The position numbers were made by a program, and so were the translations under genes. A DNA stretch of 64,000 nt from a virus. Below, in pieces: positions 4,819-24,566 of this stretch (the stretch's first letter is position 1; the number at the start of each line of letters is the position of its first letter). The notes below the pieces were generated by a model. The model saw only the letters and a list, made by a program, of their open reading frames with translations, was not told the DNA's origin and made no database searches. Location: positions 64,001-128,000 of IMG/VR virus record IMGVR_UViG_3300045988_180880. One strand, 5' to 3'.

Positions 4819-4976
4819 AATGGTTTCCTAATTGGTACGTTAGGTGTGAATCCTAGAATATATAATGTGAATTATGTATTAAATTTTGTGTATTGCTGGG
4901 AGGATCTAAATATCTAATCAGCAGTTGAAGATAATTTATTTATACGAATTTATAATAATTAAAATACTAGAATATT

Positions 4977-6364: not shown

Positions 6365-6511
6365 ATAAATTAATCACAATTCAACGACTATGGACAAAAC
6401 CAGGCTAGTGTTGTGATAACCTAGTTTTAACCATGGAAAATATAGTCTTTGCAAGATAGAATTATATCTTGGGTAATCAATATAAGTTGGCTAAAGTATT
6501 GATTATCACAG

Positions 6512-7163
6512 AGTTAATCGCCAACCCTCTTTGCACGAGTACAGTATGTTTAGCATGAAGCTCAAGCTTAATGATTCATATGCAATTGAATTTCCCATCG
6601 CTGTTTGTGAGCCTTTAAATGCTGACTTCGATGGCGATACGTGCTCCATACAACTCGTCCCTCCAGAGGCAGCAGAAGAAACATATCTTAGGATGTCGCC
6701 AAGATATGTGAATGTTTATAAGAAAAATAATGAACCTATATTTAAATTTAACCACGAAACTTTGAATGGTCTTGCAGTTGCATCAGAATACGTATTTGAT
6801 GATCAGGATGAATTAGAAAATCCTAGACACTTTTATACGGATTATGTGCAACTTCTTAAAGATGTTGAAGTAGAGAAAAAAATTAAAGTAGGTACTCCAA
6901 TTACATTCACTGGAAAAATTGGAAATGTTGAATATACCGCTAAAACAACAAGTTATGGTAGACTTCGAATTTCTAAGATTCTAGACGCAGATATGGATGA
7001 AATTGGGATTTTATCTAATAAATATGAACGTATCAGTGCTAAAGCTGCTTCGAAATTATCTTTATATCTTAATCAATTTCCTGATGGAGTTGAGAAAAGA
7101 AAAGCATTACAGAAGCTTGCCCTCAGAATTGTTACATTAGCAGGAGTAGTTACGTTTGACTAT
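6512..7163 (+). CDS. rpoC: RNA polymerase beta' exon 2 (catalytic loop)
   Basis: Contains NADFDGD. Begins NRQPSLH. Confidence 0.85.
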
Positions 7164-7350
7164 AAAATTGTAGCTTAAGAAATAAATTATCTTGAGAAAA
7201 TTCTATTAAAATGCTAGAACTATTAGAATAAAGTAGAATTAGCATCTCTATCTCTTAGATAAAATAGAGTTCAACGACTAAATATAGAACTGTATGAAGT
7301 TATATACAGATGATATAGTCTATCTAAATTAAGAAGATTTAGAATTAATG
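7164..7350 (+). mobile_element. Group I intron, type A, ORF-less
   Basis: AAATGCTAGAAC / TTAGCATC / GTTCAACGACTAA / GATATAGTCTA, then a P9 hairpin and 3' G. P1 is only 4 bp (CTAT/GTAG). Confidence 0.7.
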
Positions 7351-7464
7351 AAAACGTTATATGCTGATTGTGATACTGAGACGTATAAAAGAATATGTAA
7401 TGTTGCAGATTCAAAAGATCTTACTGATAAACAAAAACTTCTTATAATGACTGAAGAATTTCGT
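7351..7464 (+). CDS. rpoC: RNA polymerase beta' exon 3
   Basis: Open frame KTLYADCDTETYKR..TEEFR, bounded by intron cores on both sides. Confidence 0.65.
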
Positions 7465-7637
7465 TAATTATTTTTAGCGACTTAATAATTTTAATTATTA
7501 AGAAAAATAAGAGAATTGCTAGAACTATATATAAAATACTGAACTAGCATCAAGTAGTATTAACTATTTGTTCAACGACTATGTACTTATTATAAAATGA
7601 TATAGTCTACCTTTATTGATTGAATAAAGAGTTAGTG
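7465..7637 (+). mobile_element. Group I intron, type A, ORF-less
   Basis: GAATTGCTAGAAC / CTAGCATC / GTTCAACGACTAT / GATATAGTCTA. P1 TCGT/GCGA. Confidence 0.7.
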
Positions 7638-7766
7638 AAATATGAAAAAGAAGTTTCTGAAAGTTTTAGTACAGATCTTAAAAATGAATTAGCACGTGCA
7701 AATCGTGTAAAACTAAACTCGATTGTAGCAATGTCAATGCCTAAAGAAAAAATTGGGCAATATAAT
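7638..7766 (+). CDS. rpoC: RNA polymerase beta' exon 4
   Basis: Open frame KYEKEV..ANRVKLNSIVAMSMPKEKIGQYN. Confidence 0.65.
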
Positions 7767-7923
7767 GAAAATTAACTCATTATATTAAAATTATGTTAAT
7801 TGCTGGAACTGTAAGAATTATAGAATTAGCATCAAGTAAAAGCTTAAATTATTTGTTCAACGACTATATACATAATATTAAAGATATAGTCTAAACTTAT
7901 ATAAAGTAATATAAGTATCATTG
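7767..7923 (+). mobile_element. Group I intron, type A, ORF-less (about 157 nt)
   Basis: TAATTGCTGGAAC / TTAGCATC / GTTCAACGACTAT / AGATATAGTCTAA, P9 hairpin, tail ATCATTG. Confidence 0.7.
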
Positions 7924-8042
7924 CAATTTATTGTTAGTGGAGTTGATGAAAAACCTGTTATTACACGAGGAACACTTTTGTCAGGATATACAGAAAAAGA
8001 CTATCAGCTTCATTCAATCGAGAATAGATCACTACAGTCAAT
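7924..8042 (+). CDS. rpoC: RNA polymerase beta' exon 5
   Basis: QFIVSGVDEKPVITRGTLLSGYTEKDYQLHSIENRSLQS aligns with the bacterial segment ahead of the bridge helix. The 5' splice site is set by P1 AGTCAAT/GTTGACT with U.G. Confidence 0.75.
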
Positions 8043-9332
8043 TTTAGTTTACCTTTAGTTGACTATAAATTCTACTAAATGCTGGAATTCTGTGAAGAGA
8101 ATCAGCAGTTAATACAAAACTAAGTCATAAAGTTGTGAAATTATTATGGCAGGGAAATTGGAAAAATTTATATTAACAGATAAAGAAGAAATAGATTCTT
8201 TTAATAAATTAATTAGTTTAAATCCGCAACCTGGAAAATCTTTTGATAATTATTTAAAAGTTATCAATCGCGGTCATTATAAAATATGTTTATATAAATG
8301 GTTTACTGGATTAGATGAAGATATTTATGTAACTCAATCTCATTTATATAAACATTTGAATGATAATAGCAAATTTGTTAAAATAACACCTCAAATTTAT
8401 TATGATGTTATAGTATTAGGTTTGACTAATATTAATGATCGTCCTAAATGTGAAATATGTGGAAAAATATCTAGATGGGATGGATTTAAAAGAGGTTATT
8501 TAAAAACATGTTCAGAAAAGTGTTCTGAACTATTAAGAGATAGTAGAATGTCTGAACAAGGATTAAAAAATTTTCACAAATTACAGACAAAAGAGTCTAG
8601 AGAAAAGCAGAGGGAATCACATAAAGGATGGAGTCCTTCAGAAAAACAAAGAAAACAAATTTCTCAACGAATGAAAGATTTCTATAAGACACCAAAAGGA
8701 TTAGAAATGAGAAAGAATTCTAGTAGGTTATTATCTGAAAGAAATATTGAAATGATGAAAGATAAGTCTTATTATAACAAACGAACAGGAGGTAAATATA
8801 AAACAGGTATATATCATTCTAAAGTTTGGAATAAAGATTTTAATTATGATTCATCTTGGGAAATTAATTTTATAAAATTTTTTGAAAAGCAGAAATGGCA
8901 AAGTGAGATAAAAATATTTGATAGGTGTTTAGATTCTATTATTTATAAATGGGATGATGGAACTGAACATAGATATCTACCTGATTTTTACATCAAATTT
9001 AAATCAGGTCTTCAAGTTGTTATTGAGTTAAAACCAGCAAATCTAATAGAAAAAGATCCGGTGATTTTAGCCAAAAGAATAGCAGCGAAGAAATACTTTG
9101 CAAAAAGAAATATAAAATATATTATATTATCTGAAAATGAACTATTCACAACTAGATATATAAAGTATACTAAATTATCTGAAAGTTTAGGAATAGTTAA
9201 TTCATTTAATATTTATGATTACATAGTTTAATTAAGATTTAGTTTTGTATTAATTCAACGACTATATGTAGAAACTTATGTGAATAAGAAAGGTATAGTC
9301 TAAGTCTTTATGAATAAATAAAGATATCACTG
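8043..9332 (+). mobile_element. Group I intron core (type A) with endonuclease ORF; first half of a tandem insertion
   Basis: AAATGCTGGAAT (8081) / AATCAGCAG (8104) / ATTCAACGACTAT (9253) / GGTATAGTCTAA (9292), P9 hairpin, tail ATCACTG. Confidence 0.65.
8146..9231 (+). CDS. Intron-encoded PD-(D/E)xK-type endonuclease
   Basis: C-terminal PDFY..VIELKP (D..ExK). Cys-rich CEICGK..CSEKC. NUMOD-like SxxxKxKIS repeats. Confidence 0.55.
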   Translation: MAGKLEKFILTDKEEIDSFNKLISLNPQPGKSFDNYLKVINRGHYKICLYKWFTGLDEDIYVTQSHLYKHLNDNSKFVKITPQIYYDVIVLGLTNINDRPKCEICGKISRWDGFKRGYLKTCSEKCSELLRDSRMSEQGLKNFHKLQTKESREKQRESHKGWSPSEKQRKQISQRMKDFYKTPKGLEMRKNSSRLLSERNIEMMKDKSYYNKRTGGKYKTGIYHSKVWNKDFNYDSSWEINFIKFFEKQKWQSEIKIFDRCLDSIIYKWDDGTEHRYLPDFYIKFKSGLQVVIELKPANLIEKDPVILAKRIAAKKYFAKRNIKYIILSENELFTTRYIKYTKLSESLGIVNSFNIYDYIV

Positions 9333-9388
9333 AAAAGTTAGTGGAGTTAGAAATAAAACCTGAACTTTATGGTAGCCCACTATAAATA
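9333..9388 (+). pseudogene. Decayed duplicate of the 5' end of beta' exon 5 (pseudo-exon)
   Basis: AAAGTTAGTGGAGTTAGAAATAAAACCTG resembles TTGTTAGTGGAGTTGATGAAAAACCTG at 7931, with a 1-nt indel. A stop is met in the frame set by exon 5. Confidence 0.5.
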
Positions 9389-9780
9389 ACAAAGAAATGC
9401 TGGAAATAATAATAGACAGACGAAGTCAAAGTTTTTTAAAATCAGCAACTTATCAACGAGAAAAAGATGAATTATTAGTACTTTTTAAAACTTAATGTGT
9501 AGATTTGAAAAATTCTTAGAAACTCTAAGGCTTGTTGGAAGTATAGCAAGAACTATACTCTCTGGAATTGAAGAATATAGAAAAATTCAAGAAACAAAAG
9601 CTTATCGAGAGAATAAGAAAAATAATGTAAAATATCTACCAAGACCAAAAAGGTATAATAGTAGAAGAAAACAAAGATAAGATCAACGACTATGTATTGT
9701 TAGATTAAGGAAACTCTTTAATCATGATATAGTCTAATCTTACGTGAATAAGCGTAAGCAGGATAAGAGATTAGAAGACG
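9389..9780 (+). mobile_element. Group I intron core (type A); second half of the tandem insertion
   Basis: AAATGCTGGAAAT (9395) / AAATCAGCAAC (9439) / GATCAACGACTAT (9681) / GATATAGTCTAA (9726), P9 hairpin. No convincing P1 of its own. Confidence 0.55.
9495..9680 (+). CDS. Small basic ORF inside intron core
   Basis: 61-aa ORF with a K/R-rich C-terminus. No endonuclease motif. Confidence 0.3.
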   Translation: MCRFEKFLETLRLVGSIARTILSGIEEYRKIQETKAYRENKKNNVKYLPRPKRYNSRRKQR

Positions 9781-10106
9781 TCTTTTAAAAATTATAATAT
9801 CTAATCTCTTTGAATGGCCTAGTTCAGGATATTTAACACGACAAATTTCATTCCTTTTAAATAGTTTTATATATCATGAAGGAGAAGATCCAGAAAACAC
9901 AGGATTACTCATTCCACGATATAAAGCATTAGGAAGAACAGCACCGAACGGAAAGGTATACCCAGACAAACCAATAGTAAATGGTTCTGAGGATGATCTT
10001 GTTCCAGTACGTTCGATTGTTACAAAAAGAACTGGAGATTTAAGCACAATTACACCAGACCTGATTGGAAAGAAATTTAGTTTTACTGATGGAGCAGCAA
10101 TAGGAT
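9781..10106 (+). CDS. rpoC: RNA polymerase beta' exon 6 (bridge helix region)
   Basis: SSGYLTRQ matches bacterial NSGYLTRR. The frame is open only from 9767. The track lists no ORF here because there is no start codon. Confidence 0.75.
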
Positions 10107-10353
10107 AAGTTTAGAATTGTCCATAAAAGTTTGTTATAGACTTTTATTAAACTTCAAGAATTGCTGGGAGTATTATCGCTATTTATTCTTCGCCTTGTAA
10201 AATAAAAAACTTAAGGCGAAAATTATATAGCGAGAGATAATCAGCAAAAGATATAGAAAATATATCTTCTTAACGACTATGTGTGAAGGAGAGATTAAAA
10301 CACTCTTAAGATATAGTCTAGTAATCTATATAAAGTTTGTATAGGTTTAATCG
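10107..10353 (+). mobile_element. Group I intron, type A, ORF-less
   Basis: GAATTGCTGGGAG / TAATCAGCA / CTTAACGACTAT / AGATATAGTCTA. The junction gives GAAIG-L-SFATS. Confidence 0.7.
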
Positions 10354-10400
10354 TATCATTTGCTACATCATTAACTGAAGGTACTACTCAATTAAAATTG
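10354..10400 (+). CDS. rpoC: RNA polymerase beta' exon 7 (trigger-loop base); 3' end approximate
   Basis: SFATSLTEGTTQLK matches bacterial AAQSIGEPGTQLT. The 3' boundary is uncertain by about 10 nt. Confidence 0.6.
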
Positions 10401-10573
10401 GTTGCTATATAAAATAGTATTATATAGAAAATCTTTGTAAAATGCTGGAAATTAAAAAAAAATAATCAGCATCAAGGAATATATTAATAACTTGTTCAAC
10501 GACTATAAAAAAAGATCTTATTAATTTAAGAATGGTATAGTCTAAATTCATTCTAAAAGGATGAATAATCTTG
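10401..10573 (+). mobile_element. Group I intron, type A, ORF-less (boundaries approximate)
   Basis: AAATGCTGGAAAT / TAATCAGCATC / GTTCAACGACTAT / GGTATAGTCTAA, then a P9 hairpin. Confidence 0.65.
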
Positions 10574-10602
10574 CAGCATTAGGTCTGAAACATGGTGGCC
10601 AT
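10574..10602 (+). CDS. rpoC: RNA polymerase beta' exon 8 (about 29 nt)
   Basis: Encodes ALGLKHGGH (bacterial RTFHIGG). The 3' end is set by P1 GCCAT/GTGGC with U.G. Confidence 0.65.
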
Positions 10603-10762
10603 AGATTATATTTGTGGCGTATAATTTCAATAATTGCTGGAAATATTTGTAATAAAATAAATCAGCAGGGGAAAATAAAATCCCTTCAACGACTATAAAT
10701 GAAACTAGATGAATTTCTGGATGATATAGTCTAACTTATAAATTATATTATAAGAGTAATTG
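10603..10762 (+). mobile_element. Group I intron, type A, ORF-less (about 160 nt)
   Basis: TAATTGCTGGAAAT / AAATCAGCAGG / CTTCAACGACTAT / GATATAGTCTAA, 3' G at 10762. Confidence 0.75.
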
Positions 10763-11002
10763 GAACGTGTGCTTAATACAGAAGGAAATCTTAAAGCACC
10801 AAAACAATGTGAGTTTAGAGAGGAAGGCAGATGGATTTACCTAAAAGTTAGAGGAGGAGAATTAAAATATCCGAGACCTAATAATTGGGTAGGAGTAGGT
10901 AAGACAAAATTTGAGAAAGGTGACTTAATAGGGTCAGCTTATAATACTACCTCGCCTATTTACAAGTTGAACGCTCTCATAAAACTTATGCGTGCCAAAG
11001 GT
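10763..11002 (+). CDS. rpoC: RNA polymerase beta' exon 9
   Basis: Open frame ERVLNTEGN..MRAKG. Ends in AAAGGT, the type B insertion site. Confidence 0.7.
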
Positions 11003-11195
11003 GAATATAAAATTGCCGTCTAAGGAAGTAATTCTCTAGATAATTAGTAAGTAAATTTGGTGAAGCTAGTAACTAGTAATACCAAGCCTTGGATTAATAA
11101 TTAGAATCTTAAGGTATAACGAATAAAGACTTACCAACTTTTTTATAAGTTGAATTTATATTCTAAACTATAATAAGAAAATTATAGATAAATTG
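11003..11195 (+). mobile_element. Group I intron, type B, ORF-less
   Basis: GCCG guide, P2 hairpin, AGTAAGTAAATTTGGTGAAG / AATACCAAG / TATAACGAATAAAGACTTACC / AATTTATATTCT, terminal hairpin, tail ATAAATTG. Confidence 0.7.
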
Positions 11196-11804
11196 AGTGA
11201 TGGCACAAGATATTTTGAGAAGGATAATGTTATTGTATCTGATTGTTATGCTTTGAATGATGGGGTTATTCATTACAAAGAGACCAAGGAAGGTGATACT
11301 GAAGTTTGGATTGGTGATACTCAGTATGACTATAATCCAGAGTGTATGTATTATTTTCCTGATGGTACAGAGATTAAGAAATTTCAAAGAATTTCCAGCG
11401 GAGTTTGCAATATGAATCATGTTATTGCAGAGTTGGGTTCTAATATTAATGATATTTACTTAATCTTTAGAAAACAATTTTATACTTTAACAGATGGAGG
11501 ATTTGTATCAACTGGTTTATCAGATCTTCATGCTACACAGGAAGAACTTATTGAACTTTTATTCACAGGTTTAACTGATGTAGGTGTAGATCCAGAAACA
11601 CAGAAGATTGAAGACATCCAATATCTAGGTACTCAAAGTGGTGTTTTAAATAAGAAGTCATTCTATACTGTTTTGTCTTACGGTTATAGCTCTAGAGTTG
11701 TGTCTAAAGCTCTCAAAGGGGAATTAAATCTTTCTGGTGACGTAATGACAGAAACTATATTAGGATTACTTTTAAATAATAAACTTGACGAAAAACAAAA
11801 GTAA
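11196..11804 (+). CDS. rpoC: RNA polymerase beta' exon 10 (C-terminal)
   Basis: Open frame SDGTRYFEKDN.. running to the stop at 11804. Confidence 0.7.
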   Translation, partial: SDGTRYFEKDNVIVSDCYALNDGVIHYKETKEGDTEVWIGDTQYDYNPECMYYFPDGTEIKKFQRISSGVCNMNHVIAELGSNINDIYLIFRKQFYTLTDGGFVSTGLSDLHATQEELIELLFTGLTDVGVDPETQKIEDIQYLGTQSGVLNKKSFYTVLSYGYSSRVVSKALKGELNLSGDVMTETILGLLLNNKLDEKQK

Positions 11805-11813
11805 AAACAAATT

Positions 11814-12092
11814 ATGGGAACTATTAAATTTGAAATAGATCTTCCAGAATTTGAAAAAGAGTTGAGTATTAATGTAACTATTCATAGAGACGGTGAGGTG
11901 GTTTATACTACTACTACCTCATCTTCCTCTGTGGATAAATCTAATAATACTAATCTTTTATCGAGCCTTGGAAGTAAACCCGAGCAAGAAAAATGTATCT
12001 CTGTGGATGGAGATAAACAAAAAGAAGAAAAACCCAAGAAAGCATCAACTACATCTCGAAGGGGAGGAAATTTGATGAACTTGGATATATGA
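11814..12092 (+). CDS. Hypothetical protein
   Basis: ORF between beta' and beta. S/T-rich and K/E-rich low complexity. Confidence 0.45.
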   Translation: MGTIKFEIDLPEFEKELSINVTIHRDGEVVYTTTTSSSSVDKSNNTNLLSSLGSKPEQEKCISVDGDKQKEEKPKKASTTSRRGGNLMNLDI

Positions 12093-12123
12093 TGATTAAA
12101 ACCAGAGAAGAGAATTTTTTGTT

Positions 12124-12474
12124 ATGAACGATAATTATTATAAAATTATACTATCATATGAAATTCCATATAACATTTTAGACAGTCAAGATCCGAATAT
12201 TATACAGGCGAGAGAAATATTATATGAAAAACTTAGAGATGATATTTTTCCGAAGTATGAAAGATTTTCGGTAAAGCTTACATTACATCAACTTAAAGAT
12301 AACTTCAATTATCTTGTTACTTATGAAGCTTTTTTTAGATCTCTTGATGGTAAACCTATGGGAGAATATGTAGAGGCTCGTAGCTTAAAAGATAGTATTA
12401 AATCAGAATTAGAAACATTTTTTAATTCAGTAGATTGCGAATATAAGCAATTAAATATAAAACCATTAGTATAA
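12124..12474 (+). CDS. Hypothetical protein
   Basis: ORF whose stop overlaps the beta start (TAATG). Confidence 0.55.
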   Translation: MNDNYYKIILSYEIPYNILDSQDPNIIQAREILYEKLRDDIFPKYERFSVKLTLHQLKDNFNYLVTYEAFFRSLDGKPMGEYVEARSLKDSIKSELETFFNSVDCEYKQLNIKPLV

Positions 12475-13336
12475 TGAGTAATTTTAATCAATATTTCAGA
12501 AACACTGGAGCAAAAATTATAGTAGATCGATTTTTTAATAAAGTTGATGCATATAATCCTAAAGTAAAAGTTGGAAAAATTGGATATTCATTTATAGAAG
12601 AACCTCCTCAACCAGCTTCTTACTATATTGAAAATGGATTAACTGCTACACATAAAGTAAGAATTGAATATACAACTATAACGGATGGGAAAGAAGATCC
12701 TGAAATGAAGTATGCAGAGTTCGAAGTTCCTAAAGAAATTGATGGTGCATTTATTATAGAAGGCGCTTATCGTATTTCAACTAATCGAATGGGATCTGAT
12801 TATGACTGTCGTATTAAAATGTCTGGTACAGGAGATTATAAAGTTAATTTCGACTATGATAGAGTTTACGATATTCAAAAACAGATTCTGAAGATAAAAA
12901 GAATTAATCCGGAACTTGGAATTGCAGATAAACCAATTGATATAAAGTTTGAAGACATTGATAAATACTTGGAAACTGATAAAAAGGAGATCTTGAAGTT
13001 AACTGAAAGACAAACCAAGAAATTAATGATCAAACTTGACTTGGATTATAAACCTGAATATATTACACAAAAACTAATACAGGAATGTTTGGCCTTTGGA
13101 GATGATAGACTAAAAGACTTAATCATTGATAAAACATTAGAATCAGTTCCTAACAGTTTTATGCAATATATTTTTAGGAATAATAATGGACGTAACTATT
13201 TTGCAGCTAGACGAAGAATTACATCATATTTTACAAAGTATGGTAAAATTCAAGATCAAGTTACTGCAATTAGTACTTTGTGTTTTAGATTTTTTAAAGG
13301 AAGTAGCGATAACAAAGGAGATTCAGGAGTACAGGT
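12474..13336 (+). CDS. rpoB: RNA polymerase beta homologue, exon 1
   Basis: DGAFIIEGAYRISTNRM resembles bacterial GTFVINGTERVIVSQL. Ends in CAGGT ahead of the type B guide GCCG. Confidence 0.8.
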
Positions 13337-13557
13337 ACAAAATATAAAGGTGCCGTTTTATGGAGAAATCTATAAAATTATTAGTAAGTAAATTCGGTGA
13401 AGGGTAAAACCTAATACCGAACTAAGGATAATGAAAATTTTTAGTGTAACGAATAAAGACTTACTAACTTATAATTAAAATATAAGTTAAATTTATATTC
13501 TGTTCTATATAAGTAGAACTTTATTTATATAGTTAACAATAAAGCCCCCCTGGAGTA
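13337..13557 (+). mobile_element. Group I intron, type B (3' boundary unresolved)
   Basis: GCCG, P2 hairpin, AGTAAGTAAATTCGGTGAAG / AATACCGAAC / GTGTAACGAATAAAGACTTACT / AAATTTATATTCT, terminal hairpin ending at 13531. Confidence 0.6.
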
Positions 13558-13641
13558 AATTCCATTAACTTAGAGGCAATCTCCCAAAAAATTGTTATTC
13601 CTGCGAGTGTAGCCTTTAATTCGACTTTTACAGATTTAGAT
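13558..13641 (+). CDS. rpoB: RNA polymerase beta exon 2 (5' end approximate)
   Basis: The only open frame is ISINLEAISQKIVIPASVAFNSTFTDLD. The 3' end is set by P1 TTAGAT/GTCTGA. Confidence 0.5.
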
Positions 13642-14763
13642 TAAGTCTGATTATAGAATATTTTTTATAATAAAAACTTTGAGAATTGCTAGAAAACTAG
13701 TGATAGTTAATTAGCAGTATAAAATAAGTATAATTATTTATGCGTTGAGAGGAAAAATTTTTGAAAGGAATTTAAGAATGACGCATGTAAAAGAAATTAA
13801 ATACCACAATCAATTATGGTATTATAAAACGTACAATCAGTTAATAGATAAGTGTATACAGATGGAGTCTGAAGGTTATCCTGAAGATATGTATACAGAG
13901 GTTCACCACATACTACCTAAATGTATGGGTGGGACAAATGATGAGTCTAACTTAGTAAGAATGCCAGTTAGGTATCATATAATGGCACATTTATTGTTAG
14001 CACAAGTATATCCAGAAATAAATGGATTAGTTTATGCAGCACATGTTCTAGTCTCAGTGAATAATTCAGTTGTATCTACGAATACAGCTGCATTAATTAG
14101 AGAAGATTTTAAAAAGTCTAGAATAGGATCTCATCATTCAGAAGAGACAAGGAGAAAAATTTCTGAATCTAACAAAGGAAAAGTTATCCCTAGAGAACTA
14201 GTAGAGAAGTTAAGATCTATTAATTTAGGGAAGAAACATTCACTTGAAACGAGAAAGAAGATGTCAGAAGCTAGAAAAAGAGAGAATTTATCCGAGGAAA
14301 CACTAAGAAAAAGATCTCTAGCGTCCTCTGGAAGAAAACATTCTGAAGAAGTCAAGAAGAAGATTTCTATAGCTAATACTGGAAAAATTTTTAGCGAAGA
14401 ACACAGACAAAACATATCTAAAAGTAAGATGGGAAAAGGACATCCACATACTGAAAAAACAAAGAAAATGATGTCTGATACTAGCGTTAAGAGAAAAAGA
14501 GTTCAAGGCCCTGATGGAATAATTTACGAATCTATGAAACTTTGTTGTGAGAAATTTAATATTCATAGAGATACCCTTCGAAGCTGGATTAAAAATCACC
14601 CAGAAAAAGGCTTTAAATTTATTGATTAAAAAATTTATCATTACTATAAATTCCTTTCAATGTAATGAAATTTAATACTTATTTTATATTCAACGACTAT
14701 GTACAAAGAGGGAAATTCCTTAAGATATAGTCTAGTGATAAAGTAAAAAACTTTATCTATTCG
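13642..14763 (+). mobile_element. Group I intron, type A, with HNH ORF
   Basis: GAATTGCTAGAAA / TTAGCAG / ATTCAACGACTAT (14690) / AGATATAGTCTA, P9 hairpin, tail TATTCG. Confidence 0.8.
13745..14629 (+). CDS. Intron-encoded HNH homing endonuclease
   Basis: EVHHILPKCMGGTN and repeated SEETRxKIS modules. C-terminal WIKNHPEKGFKF. Likely start is the ATG at 13778. Confidence 0.8.
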   Translation: MRGKIFERNLRMTHVKEIKYHNQLWYYKTYNQLIDKCIQMESEGYPEDMYTEVHHILPKCMGGTNDESNLVRMPVRYHIMAHLLLAQVYPEINGLVYAAHVLVSVNNSVVSTNTAALIREDFKKSRIGSHHSEETRRKISESNKGKVIPRELVEKLRSINLGKKHSLETRKKMSEARKRENLSEETLRKRSLASSGRKHSEEVKKKISIANTGKIFSEEHRQNISKSKMGKGHPHTEKTKKMMSDTSVKRKRVQGPDGIIYESMKLCCEKFNIHRDTLRSWIKNHPEKGFKFID

Positions 14764-15132
14764 TTAGTCGATATTGCCGACACTCCTATAAATAATAATA
14801 CTAACCTCCAGAACTCACTTACAGTTTCATGTCATATTACAGACGATGATGTACTATTTGATGTATATGATACAAATTTCGTAAAAATAACAATAAAATA
14901 TATAGACTATCTTAATAAAAAAGTAGCTGCCAGTGAGTATGTAGATTATGAAACTAACACTTTAAAGCCAGATAAAGATGGTCAAGTGGAGGTTAAGTAT
15001 AGGATGAAAAGAAAGATGGTTCCAGTCGAAGAAGTGGAATTGATCGATTTACATCCTGATTACAGATTGTCTAGCACAACTCGAAGAATCCCATTTGTGA
15101 ATTATACAGATAGTGTCAGAATAAGCATGGGT
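14764..15132 (+). CDS. rpoB: RNA polymerase beta exon 3
   Basis: LVDIADTPINNNTNLQNSL resembles bacterial RVCPIETPEGPNIGLINSL. IPFVNYTDSVRISMG resembles IPFLEHDDANRALMG. Confidence 0.8.
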
Positions 15133-15326
15133 ACTAATTTATGTGCCGCTTAAAGTAGTAATATTTTAAGTAACCAGTAAGTAAATTCGGTGAAAGAGTG
15201 ACTGAGCTTTAATACCGAGCTAAAGATAATAGATTTCTTTAGTGTAACGAATAAAGACTTACTAACCAAAATAAAGGTTAAATTTATATTCTAAACTATA
15301 ATTAAAAGTATATTATAGAAGATTTG
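15133..15326 (+). mobile_element. Group I intron, type B, ORF-less
   Basis: Follows ATGGGT. Same conserved core as 11003-11195. The junction restores MG-TSMLKQSIPL (bacterial MGSNMQRQAVPL). Confidence 0.8.
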
Positions 15327-16266
15327 ACATCAATGCTTAAACAGAGTATACCTCTGATTAATGCGGAGCGTGCACTTGTTGACACTGGAAGGAATGAAGA
15401 GTTGAAAGATAATATATTAAATGAAAAGTTCAGTTATCCAGAGGGTAAGGTAAAGGATATAACAGAGGATGAAGTTATAATTGAATTGCCTGATGGAACT
15501 GAGACAAATATTTTACGAAGAACAGCGATTCAGAGTATAAATGACGTGGCGGTATTTACAGAGCCTAAAGTAAAAATCGGCCAAAAAGTAAAACAGGGAG
15601 ATATTATAACTGGTGCAGTTGGACATACTCCTGAAACATATAAGGCCGGCGTTAATGCTCTGGTACTTTTCCACGCCTATTATGGTTTAGTAAATGAGGA
15701 TGCTTTGGTGATATCAGAATCATTTGCAAATCGTATAGCATCTTATAGTATAATTGACTTAATGATTAATGTTAAGAGTACTAGTGCTATTAAGTGGATC
15801 GCCCCTATTGGAACAAAGGTTAAATCAAAAGATGCAGTAGTGACATTATATAAAGCTGTTCGTCTTGATGCTATAAATCAGGCACTACAAGAAAAACTCG
15901 GAGGACTTTTCGGAGAAGGACATGATCTCTCCGAATATACTATCGAGGATCATTTAGTTGTGCCTAATAATATAGACGAGGCAATAGTTTCTGATGTAAT
16001 GATACAGGAAATGAAGAAACCTAAAATTCCTAAATCAGTAAAATCACCTGACTATTCATTTACACATACCTCTCAGGATGTTATAGATGAATATGAAAAA
16101 ACAAAATCTCGAAAAATTATCTACGAGAAATACCCAGAGTATATTGCAGCTGATACATTAGATCCTATTAATATGGATCCAGAAGCGTATAAGATTGTGT
16201 ATACTGTTCGCGTGAGACTCATCAAAAGAACTGTGGGAATGATCGGAAGTAAAATTACCTCTAGAT
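15327..16266 (+). CDS. rpoB: RNA polymerase beta exon 4
   Basis: NALVLFHAYYGLVNEDALVISE resembles bacterial [22 protein letters not shown]. P1 CTAGAT/GTCTAG. Confidence 0.85.
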
Positions 16267-17666
16267 TTAATATAAGTCTAGTTAATTTTCAATAAAAGTT
16301 AACTAAATTTTGTGAATTGCTGGAAAAATCTAAATAAAATAGATGGATAGATAAATCAGCAGTATATTTATGTTTAATTATGAGTAAAATATGAGCGATA
16401 TTAATTTTTAATAATAAATTGAACAATGAGCGAAGAAGAAATATTAATACATAATCAAAATTGGTATCGCAAAGTATATTTCCAAATAATTGATCGCGCT
16501 AGATTAAGAGGTTTGGATAAAAATAAAATTGATTTTTATGTAGAAATTCATCATATACTACCTAAATGCCTAGGAGGAACTGATGAAAATGATAACTTAG
16601 TTGCATTAACTTATAGAGAACATATAGTTTGTCATAAATTATTGTGTAAATTATACCCAGATAATTACTACTTACATTCTTCTATATATTTAATGCTACA
16701 TATTAAAATAGAAAATGGGAAGAAGGTAAAAACATTTTCTAATTCTAAAGAGGCAGAAGAATATAAGCTTTTCTTGAAAACTCATAAAAAGCCTCTTTCT
16801 GAGGAATCTAGAAAAAAGATGTCAGAATCGCATAAAGGTTGGAGTCCATCTGAGGAACATAGAAGAAGAGTTTCAGAAGTACATACTGGAAAAATCGTTT
16901 CAAAAGAAACCAGAGAAAAATTAAGAAAGGTTAATCTGGGAAGACATCATACAGAAGAATCCAAAAGAAAGATATCAGAGTCACGTAGAGGAAAGAAATT
17001 ATCTTCAGAACAAAAAGAAAAAATTTCAAAATCACTAAAAGGAAAAAGATTAGGAATCTCTCCAACTAAGGAACAAGTAGAAAAAGCAAAACAAACTCGG
17101 ATACTCCATGGAGGGTGGGTACATACAGATGAAAGTAAAAGAAAAATTTCAGAATCTTTAAAGAAGACGAATTCTGTCTCTGAACATATATCAGAAGATA
17201 TAAGAAATTCTTTAAGGAAAAAGTTTGGGTTCGCTGTAAGATATACTGATATTAATACTGGTGAAATTTACGAATTTGATTCAATTACAAAAGCTGTTAG
17301 TGAACTTAAAGAGTTAAGTATTATGAATAAAAGCTTTCATTTTATAAAGCGTTCTTGTACATTAAATATTAATGGATTTGAATTTATCAATGAAACAAAT
17401 GAAATGATTCAAAAGAAAGTTCAGGGGCCTGATGGAATTATTTACAATAGTATATCTGAATGTGCTAGACAATTGAATACAGTTAGATCTGTAATTATTG
17501 ATTGGATTACTAATCATCCAGAAAAAGGATTTAAATACATTTAAAAAATCAATCGCTCATTGATATAAAAATAATTAAATAAAATATATTCAACGACTAT
17601 GTACAAAGAAGGAGTATTTCCTTAAGATATAGTCTAGACTTTACTTAATTAAGTAAAGTATTATCG
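16267..17666 (+). mobile_element. Group I intron, type A, with HNH ORF
   Basis: GAATTGCTGGAAAA / AAATCAGCAG / ATTCAACGACTAT (17589) / AGATATAGTCTA, P9 hairpin, tail ATTATCG. Confidence 0.8.
16426..17544 (+). CDS. Intron-encoded HNH homing endonuclease
   Basis: EIHHILPKCLGGTDENDN..H and repeated SEExRxKxS modules. C-terminal WITNHPEKGFKY. Confidence 0.8.
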   Translation: MSEEEILIHNQNWYRKVYFQIIDRARLRGLDKNKIDFYVEIHHILPKCLGGTDENDNLVALTYREHIVCHKLLCKLYPDNYYLHSSIYLMLHIKIENGKKVKTFSNSKEAEEYKLFLKTHKKPLSEESRKKMSESHKGWSPSEEHRRRVSEVHTGKIVSKETREKLRKVNLGRHHTEESKRKISESRRGKKLSSEQKEKISKSLKGKRLGISPTKEQVEKAKQTRILHGGWVHTDESKRKISESLKKTNSVSEHISEDIRNSLRKKFGFAVRYTDINTGEIYEFDSITKAVSELKELSIMNKSFHFIKRSCTLNINGFEFINETNEMIQKKVQGPDGIIYNSISECARQLNTVRSVIIDWITNHPEKGFKYI

Positions 17667-17680
17667 ATGGAGGCAAAGGT
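17667..17680 (+). CDS. rpoB: RNA polymerase beta exon 5, a 14-nt micro-exon
   Basis: ATGGAGGCAAAGGT. Joined to its neighbours it gives SR-Y-GGKG-VVS, matching bacterial GRHGNKGVIS with identical spacing. Confidence 0.7.
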
Positions 17681-17871
17681 CAAATTACAAGGCCGTTTAA
17701 GGTAGTAATATCTTAAATAATCAGTAAGTAAATTTGGTGAAGGAAGTAAAATTCTAATACCAAGCTAATAAAATATAATAATTTATTAGTATAACGAATA
17801 AAGACTTACTAGGTTGAAATAATACCTAAATTTATATTCTAATTTACTAGGATAATCTAGTAATAGTAATG
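17681..17871 (+). mobile_element. Group I intron, type B, ORF-less
   Basis: Follows AAAGGT. Has GGCCG, a P2 hairpin and the conserved type B core. Tail TAGTAATG. Confidence 0.75.
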
Positions 17872-18645
17872 GTTGTAAGTGCTGTGAAACCCGACGATAT
17901 GATGCCAATAATGGTAGATAAGGATGGGAAACAAAGACGTTGCGAAGTAGTGATGAATCCATACAGCACAATAAATCGTAAAATTCCGAGTGTCCTTATG
18001 GAATTACAACTCGGAAATATCGCTCACAAATTACACGATCTTGTAGATAATTATAAGAAAACAAAAACAGGGCAAAAGAAGATTAAGCCCCTTCTTGAAA
18101 CATATTACCCCGGACGTTTTACTAGTATGGATGTAGAAGAAATTATAGAACGTCATAATACTAGTAAAATCGAGGATATGTATTATTTCAATGTTGGCTG
18201 CTTCTCTACTAAATTTACTCCAGAACTTGTAAATCAATGGGCTGAAGATTTAGGTGTAGAAAGTCAGAGTAAAATTCTTATGCCTGAGACTGAATTAACA
18301 GATCTCGATGAATTAAAAGAAAATCTAGAACCAGAAGAATATGATAAATTAGTTTCTGGAATGTCTGGTAAGTTTAGAGAAGTAGATAAACCTTTGCAGG
18401 CGGGATTCATGACCCTTGAAGAGTTATACCATATACCATCATATAGTAATAAGGTTACATCAAGTCTATATGGCGTAGATATTAATGCTAAACGAGATGA
18501 ACCTATACTTGGAAAGGGACGCTATAGACAGACAGGACAGAAAATTGGTGAGATGGAATTGGCCGTATTACTTTCTAGAAATGCGGATCAATTTATCAGC
18601 GGTGCTAGAAAAGACACTGCGAAGGAAGATAATCAAATGTTCCTT
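17872..18645 (+). CDS. rpoB: RNA polymerase beta exon 6
   Basis: VVMNPYSTINRKIPS resembles IVLNPLGVPSRMNIGQ. GQKIGEMELAVL resembles GGQRFGEMEVWAL. Confidence 0.85.
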
Positions 18646-18833
18646 AAATTATTGAGGCTAGTATCAATACAAACTGATACTAGAAAATATCTTAAATTGC
18701 TGGAACAAAGTAGAAAATCAGCATCAAGCTGTTGTTTTATAATTAACAGCTTGTTCAACGACTATAGTAGATACTAAAGAATACTTATTTTAGATAATAT
18801 AGTCTTACTTTAAATAAAATTAAAGATGAATAG
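18646..18833 (+). mobile_element. Group I intron, type A, ORF-less
   Basis: AAATTGCTGGAAC / AAATCAGCATC / GTTCAACGACTAT / TAATATAGTCTTA, P9 hairpin, tail ATGAATAG. P1 CCTT/GAGG. Confidence 0.7.
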
Positions 18834-18862
18834 AATAACTTATTAGGTCTAGGATTAACCGT
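18834..18862 (+). CDS. rpoB: RNA polymerase beta exon 7 (29 nt)
   Basis: Encodes NNLLGLGLT(V). P1 AACCGT/GCGGTT with U.G. Confidence 0.6.
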
Positions 18863-19046
18863 AAACTATTTGCGGTTTTAAATTATATTAAAATGCTAGA
18901 ATATTTATAATAAATATATTAGCAAAATATCTTACCTTAGATTATATCTAAGAAAAAGATATTCTCAACGACTAAATATATAACTAAGTTTGAAATATAA
19001 TTTAGATGATATAGTCTGAACATAGATTAATAATAATCTAGTAACG
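18863..19046 (+). mobile_element. Group I intron, type A, ORF-less
   Basis: AAATGCTAGAAT / TTAGCAA / CTCAACGACTAA / GATATAGTCTGA, P9 hairpin, tail GTAACG. Confidence 0.7.
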
Positions 19047-19053
19047 TAATTGA
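19047..19053 (+). CDS. rpoB: RNA polymerase beta terminal exon (7 nt: 4 coding nt plus stop)
   Basis: GT + T AAT TGA gives ..TVN-stop. All three frames close within a few codons after the intron. Confidence 0.5.
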
Positions 19054-19165
19054 GTAGATGATAAAGGATTTAACCAAGGTGGATCAAGTCTGAAAAAGGA
19101 ATTGAATGACTTAAAGATTAAATTCCGTCGTAAAAATAACCTATTAAACATGGGAGGTAATTGAT

Positions 19166-19795
19166 ATGGAAAATAATAGCTGTTTAATGCTAAATTGCTC
19201 GCTTTATCTTCCAGTATCCTTATCTGCTATATTTAGTAGAGAAGATCTTAAAGATACTGGAATTGAAAATGAATCGCATATAACATTATTATATGCTCAA
19301 GGAAAAGAAATCCCTAAGATGAATATTCTTGGAGATATTGAAACTATTTTAGGGGAATCTGAATTTGATGATTTTATTGAATATATAAAATCTGAGAATA
19401 CTGAAAGAATCTTAGATAATTTTGAGATCGGATCTTTTGAGAATGATAGTGACTATATAGTGTTGAAAATGAAACAAACCAGTGAATTATACAAAACACT
19501 TGGATTAATTAATAAAGGATTAAGAACAAAATATGAAGTTGTTTCTGAGTATTCCTATACGCCTCATATATCCCTCGCTGAACTTCAACCAGGAACAGCA
19601 AGGAAATATCTCGAGGATCCTAAGATTAAATTAATTCTAGAAGAAAGTTTTGTATCATTCGAAGATCTTGTTATTTCCTATGGACCTAGTAATACGCCTG
19701 TAGATAGATTGAGATATAATCTAACTACATTTAATGCAATTGATTACTTCTTTCATACAGAAAATATGAGAAAAGAAAATTCAGAATTAGATTAA
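19166..19795 (+). CDS. 2H phosphoesterase superfamily protein (LigT / cyclic phosphodiesterase-like)
   Basis: Two H-x-T/S motifs: SHITLLY and TPHISLA. Confidence 0.65.
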   Translation: MENNSCLMLNCSLYLPVSLSAIFSREDLKDTGIENESHITLLYAQGKEIPKMNILGDIETILGESEFDDFIEYIKSENTERILDNFEIGSFENDSDYIVLKMKQTSELYKTLGLINKGLRTKYEVVSEYSYTPHISLAELQPGTARKYLEDPKIKLILEESFVSFEDLVISYGPSNTPVDRLRYNLTTFNAIDYFFHTENMRKENSELD

Positions 19796-19875: not shown

Positions 19876-20883
19876 ATGTCAAAAAAGTCAAAATGGTCAG
19901 AGTATAGTAGTATTGAAAAAGTTCAAGAATTCATAAATTCCAATAATATTAGCAGTAAAATAGATTTTAAAAATAAATATCAATCTTTATATACTAGAGC
20001 TAGACTAAATAATTGGTTAGATAATTTAAAATTTAAGATAATAAAAAGAAATGATCTATCTAAATTTGATAATATAGATTCAATAAGAGTATTTATAAAT
20101 AATAATATAAAAAGTAGAACAGAGTTTAAGAAAAAATATAATGGATTATATTGGAAATCTGTAAGAAGTGGTTGGATACATGATATAAAATTTGAAAAAG
20201 ATATGAAAGATTGGAGTTACTATGATAGTATAGTTAAGGTTCAAAATTTTATCTATTCAAATAATATTTTAAATCATGATCAATTTTCAAAAGAATATCC
20301 AGGATTATTAAGTAAATGTGATAGAAATAGATGGAGTATTTACTTAAATTATATAAATGGTAAGATTAATAACTGGAATAATATTAATTCTATTATAGAT
20401 GCACAAAATTTTATAAATATTAATAATATAAATAATAGAGAATTATTTACAAAAAACTTTAGTGGTTTATCTGATAAATGTTATAGAAATAATTGGATGA
20501 AGGATTTAATTTTCAAAGAAGATGGAATTAAATCTTGTTGGGAAATTAATCTTAAGATATTTCTAAAAAAGAATAATTATACTATAGAATCTGAAATAGT
20601 ATCATATTCAAATTATTCTAAGATTGATATTTTTATACCAGATCTAAACATAGCTATTGAAATTCAGGGTCCATACCATTTCCCAGTAATGGGAAAATTA
20701 GAGCAATATCTATTTCAAAGAAAATCTGATATAAAGAAAAATAGATGGTGTAGAGAGCAAGGAATTACTTTGTTATACTTTAGCTATGATAAACTATTAG
20801 TAGAAAAATATGGATATCCCTGGTATATTTACACATCAGAGAAAGAATTGTTGGCAGAAATAGAACGAATCAAATCCTTATAA
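19876..20883 (+). CDS. Free-standing endonuclease-like protein with four N-terminal tandem repeats
   Basis: Four ~47-aa repeats (W..Y.SI..vQ.FI..NNI....F...Y.GL......W). C-terminal IDIFIPDLNIAIEIQGPYH matches the Vsr/DUF559-type nuclease pattern. Confidence 0.55.
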   Translation: MSKKSKWSEYSSIEKVQEFINSNNISSKIDFKNKYQSLYTRARLNNWLDNLKFKIIKRNDLSKFDNIDSIRVFINNNIKSRTEFKKKYNGLYWKSVRSGWIHDIKFEKDMKDWSYYDSIVKVQNFIYSNNILNHDQFSKEYPGLLSKCDRNRWSIYLNYINGKINNWNNINSIIDAQNFININNINNRELFTKNFSGLSDKCYRNNWMKDLIFKEDGIKSCWEINLKIFLKKNNYTIESEIVSYSNYSKIDIFIPDLNIAIEIQGPYHFPVMGKLEQYLFQRKSDIKKNRWCREQGITLLYFSYDKLLVEKYGYPWYIYTSEKELLAEIERIKSL

Positions 20884-22867: not shown

Positions 22868-22941
22868 TGGGCCCAGCCAGGCTTGAACTGACGACCTTCT
22901 GATTATGAGTCAGCTTCTCTAACCAACTGAGATATGGGCCC
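22868..22941 (-). tRNA. tRNA with CAU anticodon (Met, or Ile if lysidine-modified)
   Basis: Reverse complement GGGCCCATATCTCAGTTGGTTAGAGAAGCTGACTCATAATCAGAAGGTCGTCAGTTCAAGCCTGGCTGGGCCCA folds as a cloverleaf. The TPsiC arm is GGTCGTCAGTTCAAGCC. Confidence 0.9.
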
Positions 22942-23177: not shown

Positions 23178-24566
23178 TCAGGGTTTCTGAGATTCCTCTT
23201 TTTCCTCAAGTTTAAAATTTCCTGCAGTACCATGTCCTAACGATAGTACTAACTTTACTGCCTCAGGACCTCTCATGTAGTAATATCCGTCTGGCGCAGG
23301 TTTTTCAGAATTTAAATTTTTACTAATACTTTTAGTAGAAATAACTGATTCCTTCTTTGCAGATGTAATTGAATTATATGCTCCAAGAACTCTTAATTTA
23401 TCTTTAGAAAATTTATATATTATATTCTCCATCTTTTTATGTAATTTCTCTTTGTCTCCAAGTTTAATACAAATATATTTTGTAGAAATTACATTACTAC
23501 TTAATAACCTATCTACTCTGGATCTTTTAATATTGTCTTTTCCAACTAGTTTCTGGATATCTCTCGAAAAACCAAAATTTAAAAAGTCTCCATATAGATC
23601 TGCTAATACTATTTTTTCTGATAATTTTTCCAGAGTATTTACATTATTCATATTTCCTTTTTGATCAGTAACTCTAAGATTAGAAAAACTATTATCTGTT
23701 TTTATTGTATTAATGTGATCAATTATTTCTCCCTTTTTTAAATTTCTTCTTAAGAGATATTCCATAATAACTGTATGCGCTTTAGTACTATTACTATCAA
23801 CTATAATATATCCTTTATTATTAAGTGTTCCTATTAATTTATTAAATCTATTTGATTTAATAAATCCTTCACTACACACAGACCATTGAGGATATTTCCA
23901 GTGTTCATACCAAGTATAGTCATCTAAGTTTCCAGAAAATCCTATAAGATCAAAAAACTTTTGATTATTTAATGATTCTTGTCGTTTCCAATAATATCCT
24001 TTATAGCTATATTGACTTTTTTTAGCAATCGAAGAAATGTAACGTATATCATATCCTTTACTATCTAAAGAATCTATTGTAAATAATTCATTTCCCTTTT
24101 TATCCATTGCAGTATATTTAATTCGTTTATCTTTATGAACTGGTAAGCGTCTATCTGGACTATTATTTTCACTTTTAGTAACCCATTCTAAGTTAGATAG
24201 GTTATTATTTCTTGGATTATGATCTATATGATTAACTATATTATATATTTTTGGTTCTGAATTATTATAGAAAATGGTAGCCATTATTATATGAATAGAT
24301 TTTGCTTTTCTTTTATGCTTTTCTATATATTGTGGAGAGATTGTAGTATATCCAAATTCATCTTGTTGTTGTTTTAATAGTTGTTTAGTGTATTTATTTC
24401 TAACTTCAGATTTTTTATTAATCTCATATATATCCTTAATACCTGGATATACTAATGGAATAAATTCATAGTCAGGGAGATCTGGATATTTTTGATCTTG
24501 GCGATTAAATGGTTTTTCTTTACACATAACAAAAATAGTTTCTAAATTAAACATCTTTTTCATCAC
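23178..24566 (-). CDS. Free-standing HNH endonuclease with two HNH_3-type domains
   Basis: NHIDHNPRNNNLSNLEWVT and IIDHINTIKTDNSFSNLRVT. Confidence 0.7.
   Translation of the reverse strand: MMKKMFNLETIFVMCKEKPFNRQDQKYPDLPDYEFIPLVYPGIKDIYEINKKSEVRNKYTKQLLKQQQDEFGYTTISPQYIEKHKRKAKSIHIIMATIFYNNSEPKIYNIVNHIDHNPRNNNLSNLEWVTKSENNSPDRRLPVHKDKRIKYTAMDKKGNELFTIDSLDSKGYDIRYISSIAKKSQYSYKGYYWKRQESLNNQKFFDLIGFSGNLDDYTWYEHWKYPQWSVCSEGFIKSNRFNKLIGTLNNKGYIIVDSNSTKAHTVIMEYLLRRNLKKGEIIDHINTIKTDNSFSNLRVTDQKGNMNNVNTLEKLSEKIVLADLYGDFLNFGFSRDIQKLVGKDNIKRSRVDRLLSSNVISTKYICIKLGDKEKLHKKMENIIYKFSKDKLRVLGAYNSITSAKKESVISTKSISKNLNSEKPAPDGYYYMRGPEAVKLVLSLGHGTAGNFKLEEKEESQKP

Follow-up and report, generated by a model that had tools for sequence, protein, structure and literature searches.

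How a single RNA polymerase subunit might be read from a run of broken frames is the question posed by a stretch of viral DNA 64,000 nucleotides (nt) in length (positions 64,001 to 128,000 of IMG/VR record IMGVR_UViG_3300045988_180880), to which we refer as the window. From 12474 to about 19200 on its plus strand, the list of open reading frames (ORFs) holds four large RNA polymerase β-like ORFs, interleaved with two HNH/NUMOD3 ORFs. An earlier note on this DNA had read the arrangement as one β-type gene split by seven introns. Indeed, when the insertions are removed, eight exons spanning 12474-19164 (+) join into one open frame, a 1063-codon gene for RNA polymerase β that matches uninterrupted homologues from end to end. 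Seven insertions with frame-restoring junctions are far beyond chance, and we put the probability that the insertions are group I introns removed at the RNA level at roughly 90%. This reading is supported by colinearity with intron-free homologues, by splice-site rules, by group I cores backed by covariation and by the absence of individual introns from near-identical relatives.

We placed the splice sites by means of two repeated sequence families, A and B, both strongly over-represented in the region, together with the rule that an exon ends in T and an intron in G. Exon 1 (12474-13336, amino acids [aa] 1-288), which ends in ...GDSGVQ plus the GT of a Val codon, is colinear with the homologues P0001-P0105 (alignment A1). 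It is followed by intron I1 (13337-13544), an ORF-less family B element of 208 nt with GGT at the 5' exon end and a terminal G (nhmmer E=2.5e-34), and by the 91-nt exon 2 (13545-13635; PPGVNSINLEAISQKIVIPASVAFNSTFTD). I2 (13636-14763) is a 1128-nt family A intron with an endonuclease gene in the P6 loop, its P1 pairing CAGAU with GUCUG. Exon 3 (14764-15132) runs from LVDIADTPINNNTNLQNSL to RISMG, where it meets I3 (15133-15326; family B, 194 nt), and exon 4 (15327-16266), from TSMLKQSIPL to GSKITSR plus a T, contains Pfam domain Rpb2_6. I4 (16267-17666), the longest of the seven insertions in β, belongs to family A (1400 nt, endonuclease gene in P6, P1 pairing CUAGAU with GUCUAG). The exon behind it, exon 5 (17667-17680), is a micro-exon of 14 nt, ATGGAGGCAAAGGT, that completes a Y and then encodes GGKG; SKITSRYGGKGV is invariant among homologues. 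After I5 (17681-17871; family B, 191 nt), exon 6 (17872-18645) reads VVSAVKPDDMMP ... EDNQMFL. The last two introns, both of family A, are the 188-nt, ORF-less I6 (18646-18833; P1 pairing CCUU with GAGG) and the 190-nt I7 (18863-19052; P1 pairing AACCGU with GCGGUU), separated by the 29-nt exon 7 (18834-18862; NNLLGLGLT plus GT). Exon 8 (19053-19164; VDDKGFNQGGSSLKKELNDLKIKFRRKNNLLNMGGN) closes the gene with a TGA at 19162-19164, and tblastn aligned 19054-19161 with residues 1025-1059 of the β protein from a relative (L001). All of these features lie on the plus strand.

In order, the joined junctions (marked by a slash) read ...GTACAGGT/CCCCCCTGG, ...ACAGAT/TTAGTCGAT and ...ATGGGT/ACATCAATG for I1-I3, ...TCTAGAT/ATGGAGGCAAAGGT/GTTGTAAGT for I4 and I5, and ...TGTTCCTT/AATAACTTA and ...TTAACCGT/AGTAGATGA for I6 and I7; predicted junction peptides include ISMGTSMLK, YGGKGVVSAVKPDDMMPIMVDK and EDNQMFLNNLLGLGLTVVDDK. 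A β' gene lies upstream on the same strand (3686-11804; NADFDGD near 6622) and carries ten introns of its own, J1-J10, the spliced product being 1114 aa long. The reading frame is restored at all seven β junctions and at 17 of 17 when β' is included; T at position -1 and an intron-terminal G are likewise found in 7/7 and 17/17 cases, and in all 17 introns the terminal G falls where colinearity with intron-free homologues demands. One boundary of the earlier note had to be corrected. It had ended the last intron at 19046 and the protein at ...LGLTVN, with the stop at 19053. This 3' splice site was rejected, as all homologues continue ...LGLTVVDDKGFNQGGSSLKKELNDLKVKFRRKNN..., which is encoded only if I7 ends at 19052. 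The corrected site reads ...GTAATTG/AGTAGATGAT..., the intron end and the gene end (19164) moving by 6 and 111 nt, respectively, and I7 lies 37 codons from the β stop. We confirm the order that the note had given, B, A(HNH), B, A(HNH), B, A, A, but its "alternating" character carries no weight: 10 of the 35 possible orders of three B and four A introns keep the B introns apart, and the β' introns, nine A followed by one B, do not alternate.

The joined protein behaves as an ordinary β subunit in homology searches. A search of a large protein collection returned 390 β homologues, most of them uninterrupted and 1040-1065 aa long, and the uninterrupted ones sit on phage contigs of 240 kb up to 404 kb. 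From first to last residue, the spliced protein is 82.7% identical to its closest homologue, P0001, and 74.6%, 74.1% and 68.6% identical to P0002, P0003 and P0014, respectively. Alignment with the uninterrupted homologues requires no gap at any of the seven junctions, several of which lie in invariant motifs. The six larger exons were recovered independently by tblastn of the uninterrupted L001 β protein onto the window. Moreover, Pfam Rpb2_6 (PF00562; cut-off 23.4) scored 53.7 bits against the spliced protein versus 21.6 bits against the largest fragment alone. As the earlier note had anticipated, splicing also restores bacterial β motifs with their spacing: the match to Thermus β (E=2.4e-24) is gapless over ...RISMGTSMLKQSIPL... 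and ...SRYGGKGVVS..., spanning RISMG/TSMLKQSIPL and GSKITSR/YGGKG/VVS. The features by which a multisubunit RNA polymerase β subunit is recognised, Rpb2 domain 6 and catalytic-centre motifs in bacterial order and spacing, are thus all present. The upstream gene gave a similar picture, spliced β' being 70.7% identical over 1100 aa to the β' of relative L002, whose gene has a single intron, at the J6 site.

What removes the insertions is suggested by their RNA structure. A group I core (P3-P8, P4-P6 and the P7 pseudoknot) can be drawn in all seven β insertions. The last U of the 5' exon pairs with a guide G, in helices of 4-7 base pairs (bp) in 12 of 13 A-type introns (J6 being the exception) and in GGU with GCC in the B type; the intron ends in G; and P3 encloses P4-P5-P6, followed by the P7 5' strand, the P3 3' strand, P8 and the P7 3' strand, with covariation. 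Compensatory base changes are found in the cores of both families.

Family A comprises I2, I4, I6 and I7 in β and nine introns in β'. From 5' to 3', its members are laid out as a P1 loop and guide, a P2 hairpin, the P3 5' strand, AAU-UGCUGG-AA (P4), P5, AUCAGCA and P6, followed by UUCAACGACUAU (J6/7-P7), the P3 3' strand, P8, GAUAUAGUCU (J8/7-P7), P9, a few bases and the terminal G. Twelve of the 13 copies can form a helix between the final 4-7 bases of the exon and a stretch of the intron 6-24 nt downstream, in which the splice-site U faces a G. As MAFFT misaligned P1, P9 and the register of P3, we tested P1 and P3 alignment-free, by comparing cognate with non-cognate combinations of strands. 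P1 averaged 4.9 bp for cognate versus 2.4 bp for non-cognate exon/intron combinations (p=6e-8, 13 introns). The guides differ at each site and the exon sequences all differ, so that this cognate pairing amounts to covariation. P3 gave 5.9 bp versus 4.3 bp (p=2e-13). In an alignment of 46 sequences, 82.1% of cells in the core were paired, compared with 36-44% when partners were slid, and the covariation score was 0.44 against 0.10-0.16; compensatory changes are numerous in P3, P6 and P8, and P4 shows a GC/AU switch. In addition, the family A profile matched both halves of the annotated T4 nrdB group IA intron on the correct strand (E=1.6e-4 and 0.014) and T4 td weakly (E=0.79), and both T4 introns share the family A P7 motifs (T)AACGACTA...GATATAGTCTG. 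This profile match and the shared core motif suggest that family A is related to the T4 nrdB/td group IA introns.

Family B comprises I1, I3 and I5 together with J10 in β'; its members are ORF-less and about 190 nt long. RNAalifold, run unguided, returned P3 around P4-P5-P6, then P8. With P2, the P7 pseudoknot and P9 added, 90.9% of cells were paired, versus 31-47% with slid partners, and 20 pairs showed compensatory changes. None of 500 shuffles reached the observed pairing; the slid-partner control is the fairer one, as the aligned intron sequences are related and shuffles therefore overstate significance. Family B occurs in 16 distinct insertion contexts across the window and the related loci L005-L059. 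Each time, the 5' exon closes with GGT and an invariant GCC follows in the intron 7-18 nt further on; by chance, a GGT would turn up in a comparable interval with a probability of 0.13 per site. The family B sites include the RNA polymerase motifs DFDG/D, MG/T, GGKG/V and YGG/KG.

General covariance models detected these elements poorly. Introns searched singly gave the Rfam group I family RF00028 as their top match, over the full length of the model, on the correct strand and with the same helices assigned, at scores below threshold: J9 at 29 bits (E=5.8e-6), I3 at 21.4 bits (E=0.0012) and I6 at 18.6 bits (E=0.018). A blastn search with I6 and I7 gave one meaningless 46-nt match. Group II introns have domains V and VI, usually a reverse-transcriptase ORF and a length above about 600 nt. 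Here, five of the elements measure 188-208 nt, the ORFs that are present encode HNH endonucleases rather than reverse transcriptases, and no group II Rfam family matched at E<=10 in a scan of 12000-19500. With RF00028 below threshold throughout, the group I classification rests on the junctions, the splice rules, covariation and the link to T4. General covariance models have been found to miss phage introns (PMC11878797).

Several observations count against the group I reading. RF00028 did not reach its gathering score (50 bits) in the whole-window Rfam scan, which gave a tRNA only; a 7.5-kb scan of 12000-19500 returned no group I match at E<=10; and I5 and I7, searched almost alone, gave no RF00028 match, I5 yielding no Rfam match at E<=1. 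P7 in family A, and both P3 and P7 in family B, are invariant, hence compatible with the model while contributing no covariation support, and the significance of the family B shuffles is inflated as noted above. P1 of family B has just 3 bp. The HNH domains of the intron ORFs score 18.0 and 16.8 bits, under the curated Pfam cut-off of 21.4. Finally, splicing itself is deduced from sequence.

The two long introns carry genes for putative homing endonucleases, in line with the earlier claim that I2 and I4 contain HNH genes, which is now backed by Pfam domains and by homologues annotated as homing endonucleases. The I2 ORF (13780-14629, +; NUMOD3 63.9 bits, HNH 18 bits) is listed with a TTG start at 13745; the ATG at 13780 matches its paralogues. 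The I4 ORF (16426-17544, +; HNH/NUMOD3/I-HmuI-NUMOD-like) encodes 372 aa. In both, an HNH motif is combined with four NUMOD3 repeats and, at the C terminus, a NUMOD1/HTH-like domain, and both sit in the P6 loop; a HHILPKC..GG..NL motif is visible in the intron ORFs. NUMOD3 scored 63.9 and 56.6 bits (cut-off 20.4) and I-HmuI_NUMOD-like 27.5 bits (cut-off 27). These features point to NUMOD-containing, I-HmuI-like HNH homing endonucleases, whose activity and target are predicted by homology. By tblastn, the I4 ORF matched T4-like phage genes annotated as homing endonuclease, with E down to 9e-28; a phmmer search of the PDB with this endonuclease gave no match and thus yielded no direct connection with the I-HmuI structure. 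At the I2 site, relative L007 has a 185-nt ORF-less intron whose ends are 91.5% and 97.8% identical to those of I2, which thus corresponds to an L007-type ribozyme carrying about 930 nt of extra sequence in its P6 loop.

Comparison with relatives indicates that the introns move. In IMG/VR contigs of 212-378 kb, the exons are 92-100% identical at the amino acid level and the intron sets differ: I1 is absent from L007, L005 and L009; I4 and I5 from L007; I6 from L009, L014 and L053; and I7 from L053 and L030. Conversely, β genes of relatives carry introns at other sites, near residues 432, 746, 757, 787-793, 800 and 984, and the distant relatives L001, L002 and L003 have no β introns. In 600 kb of related loci, we counted 224 family A cores. 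That near-identical relatives hold different intron sets implies that the introns are mobile, a pattern that speaks against decay of the gene. The distance from I1 to the HNH-bearing I2 is 91 nt, and that from I5 to the HNH-bearing I4 is 14 nt; given this proximity, the ORF-less neighbours could be co-converted during repair.

Three sites that are occupied in relatives are empty in the window. L007 has an A-type intron (9149-9362) after ...RIPFVN, 30 nt before the I3 site; L009 has a B-type intron (8501-8764) that follows YGG and precedes the I5 site by 6 nt; and L004 has an ORF-bearing A-type intron (about 8400-9310) after NPYSTI. The truncated homologue P0036 from L004 had been considered to have its intron at the I4 site; this placement was rejected, the actual site being after NPYSTI, at about residue 793.

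We propose that group I introns of two lineages, seven in all, have invaded a phage β gene and that this gene would be transcribed as one precursor. Each intron would fold into a group I core, take up guanosine, cut after the last U of the exon where it pairs with the guide G in P1, and join the exons after its own terminal G, restoring the 1063-codon frame. The endonucleases of I2 and I4 would presumably cut or nick intron-free alleles in co-infecting relatives, the intron then being copied in by repair, and the short exons would allow co-conversion of neighbouring ORF-less introns in the same event. Family B would represent a minimal ORF-less intron with a fixed GCC guide that sits after GGU. 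Splicing is proposed to be autonomous.

The fragmentation could be looked at in quite different ways. In jumbo phages of the phiKZ/AR9 type, β and β' are split into N- and C-terminal polypeptides, and the pieces seen here might similarly be separate genes, the spacers being intergenic or selfish endonuclease genes and no splicing taking place. Split RNA polymerase subunits thus do exist in jumbo phages, an AR9 nvRNAP chain (7S00_C) is among the matches of the spliced β, and free-standing HNH genes occur in the window. However, exons of 14, 29 and 91 nt have neither a start codon nor a ribosome-binding site, the pieces join up precisely in motifs that do not vary, in some cases inside a codon, close relatives carry the same sequence uninterrupted, and the spacers have conserved group I structure with guides matched to each upstream exon; we consider this arrangement very improbable. 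Inteins, or translational bypass as in T4 gene 60, might instead remove or skip the insertions, and inteins and introns do co-occur in related gut phages (PMC12880540, PMC7886860). Yet every one of the seven insertions contains an in-frame stop, 6-132 nt from its 5' junction, by which both possibilities are effectively refuted. Five of the seven are moreover non-coding, and known bypass gaps are much shorter than the 188-1400 nt measured for the seven insertions. Six ORFs of the region, scanned against Pfam, showed no intein domain, and RNA covariation points to a ribozyme.

The locus is known here from DNA alone and 53% of the 15.5-kb β'-β span is intron (8273 of 15,479 nt from β' start to β stop), as might be expected of a decaying gene overrun by mobile elements in a phage that uses another polymerase. 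Such a pseudogene is hard to reconcile with 1063 + 1114 codons that show no frameshift or stop after intron removal, with exons that match those of differently interrupted relatives at 92-100% identity, and with catalytic motifs that are intact; nor was a second β copy seen in the 64-kb window, the part of the genome examined. We regard it as scarcely credible. A milder alternative, which we take as a real though minority possibility, is that the insertions derive from group I introns and no longer splice by themselves, some of them (family B with its 3-bp P1, and I7) needing protein cofactors or splicing poorly and thereby regulating polymerase dosage. Such a loss of autonomy would be in keeping with the dependence of many natural group I introns on helper proteins in vivo, with the minimal size (about 190 nt) and very short P1 of family B and with the low Rfam scores; on the other side, the core helices are intact and conserved, and the sequence holds nothing against autonomy. 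Such a loss is a refinement of the group I intron reading rather than a contradiction of it.

How family B reached its sites raises a further, more speculative idea. GGT is the sole target feature shared by the 16 contexts and the GCC guide is invariant, while the guides of family A vary. On these grounds, family B might be a miniature ORF-less group I intron that spreads without an endonuclease of its own, by reverse splicing into accessible GGU RNA and subsequent copying back to DNA. We hold this to be unlikely on present evidence. If true, family B would be the first natural, population-scale footprint of group I intron reverse-splicing transposition in a virus and would explain the build-up of 17 introns in two polymerase genes.

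Introns in the window are more widespread than the earlier finding of seven in β. Those of β' are all on the plus strand: J1-J5 (4819-6511, 7164-7350, 7465-7637, 7743-7923 and 8043-9332) and J6-J9 (9349-9817, 10107-10353, 10393-10573 and 10603-10762) belong to family A, and J10 (11003-11195) to family B. The 3' end of J1 was placed by eye against the β' sequence of a relative. The shortest β' exons measure 16 nt (9333-9348), 29 nt and 39 nt. Within J1, one ORF follows another, 4977-5582 (201 aa, with a weak homing-endonuclease PHROG match) and 5579-6364 (HNH/NUMOD3/I-TevI DNA-binding-like); at the J1 site, L001 has a homologue of the first ORF only, and J1 may be a composite or doubly invaded intron. 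The ORF of J5 (8146-9231, +) has a TnsA-like/PD-(D/E)XK N-terminal domain (Pfam PF08722, 37.9 bits) and not HNH, a different nuclease class within the same intron family A. J6 is the sole A-type intron that lacks a clear P1 anchored by a U.G pair, its best helix having 3 bp; a one-base shift of its splice site leaves the protein unchanged, and L002 and L003 both have an intron at this site.

A census with nhmmer profiles, which sufficed for the purpose, put the window total at about 21 introns: the 17 in β and β', two in a helicase gene and two divergent copies. The helicase gene (36606-38404, -; DnaB-like) is split twice by family A introns, whose cores lie at 37191-37300 and 37560-37680 (-), and an HNH ORF lies nearby at 34903-36384 (-). 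The divergent copies, also on the minus strand, are a B-like core at 39638-39737 (nhmmer E=6.7e-7), between ORFs 38414-39514 and 39713-40516, and an A-like core at 45989-46117 (E=1.6e-5), between ORFs 45441-45962 and 46136-46597; they suggest more split genes and a third intron variant. A motif match at 38582 (-) was discarded as a chance occurrence inside an ORF. Free-standing homing-endonuclease-like genes are found outside recognised introns at 19876-20883 (+) and 23178-24566 (-), the latter with a tandem double HNH/AP2-like architecture according to its PHROG matches; both are candidates for trans-acting mobility of the ORF-less introns.

The window has a G+C content of about 29%, and its phage-type genes include a GroEL-like chaperonin (32822-34441, -; PHROG 5725, E=9e-120), the DnaB-like helicase, a ligase and many HNH endonucleases. 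[quoted passage not shown] The IMG/VR records UViG_3300045988_180488 and 3300029127_000001 are near-identical to this phage. Against 50,697 GenBank phages, neither megablast of the region (DNA level) nor tblastn with two pieces of β exon (protein level) revealed any similarity. Between β' and β lie two small plus-strand ORFs, 11814-12092 (92 aa) and 12124-12474 (116 aa), which keep their position and sequence in L001-L003. They gave no match in Pfam, the collection scanned for them, and may encode extra polymerase subunits or assembly factors. The gene after β starts with an ATG at 19166. The tRNA gene (22868-22941, -; Rfam 62.9 bits) has the anticodon loop CUCAUAA and the anticodon CAU (Met or lysidine-modified Ile).

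If our reading is correct, the phage could have its own transcription machinery only if 17 ribozymes on two transcripts all fold and splice. The locus thereby lends itself to studying how ribozymes in tandem avoid interfering with each other's folding, how ORF-less introns spread and how far gene callers and Rfam under-annotate such genomes. Indeed, with no intron at the Rfam threshold and standard callers expected to report a dozen fragments, such genomes may be under-annotated. The corrected exon map provides full-length β and β' sequences that can be used in phylogenetic and structural studies.

That phage genes can contain group I introns, usually one each, is textbook knowledge. The kind of element described here is therefore already known, while its density is exceptional; new are the load per gene, the micro-exons, the polymerase genes as hosts and the GGT-specific minimal family. 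The T4 group IA introns in td, nrdB and nrdD/sunY (I-TevI/II/III) resemble family A in their core motif, in the endonuclease ORF placed in a peripheral loop, and in being inserted in conserved motifs of a gene for an essential enzyme. Unlike the window genes with their seven and ten introns, the T4 genome has three introns in total, one in each gene concerned, and its host genes serve nucleotide metabolism rather than encoding RNA polymerase subunits; in the window, most copies are ORF-less. Many group I introns and short exons within one essential gene are known from fungal cox1, and the Azoarcus tRNA intron is a compact ribozyme of about 200 nt with a 3-bp P1. These cases, likened here by description only, share with the window the crowding of introns (cox1) and the short P1 of family B (Azoarcus), but they are organellar or cellular and not viral.

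Among phages, several group I introns per ORF, some with HNH genes and variable in presence, have been described for Twort orf142 and for DNA polymerase and terminase genes of Bastillevirinae (PMC11878797, citing Landthaler & Shub 1999); in contrast to the window, three introns per gene are the maximum described there and exons do not go down to 14-16 nt (PMC11878797). By gene type, the nearest likeness is gp210 of PhiPA3, a multisubunit RNA polymerase gene of a jumbo phage with an HNH group I intron, whose endonuclease attacks the intron-free gene of a co-infecting relative (PMC11620839). PhiPA3 differs in having a single intron and in being a nucleus-forming Pseudomonas phage; the competition was shown for PhiPA3, and the window offers a natural test bed for intron nucleases as such weapons between co-infecting huge phages. 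What is probably the same or a closely related setting is found in the Jug phages and the crAss-like Zeta/Delta phages. Jug genomes of 360-402 kb and 27-30% G+C contain on average 18.5 group I introns of about 206 nt and many HNH and PD-(D/E)XK endonucleases, and metatranscriptome reads support splicing of 37 of 76 introns (PMC12880540). In Zeta phages, a genome can contain as many as 14 introns, and a capsid gene is broken into five pieces (PMC7886860). In these phages, the genes that lie in pieces (2-5 each) are those for terL, nrdD, DNA polymerase and capsid, whereas RNA polymerase genes with seven and ten introns are not described (PMC12880540, PMC7886860). The papers cited here go no further than three introns per gene for cultured phages and, for crAss-like genomes from metagenomes, four interruptions of a gene; the two polymerase genes analysed here have seven and ten, and the approximately 21 introns of the 64-kb window alone exceed the average of 18.5 for an entire Jug genome.

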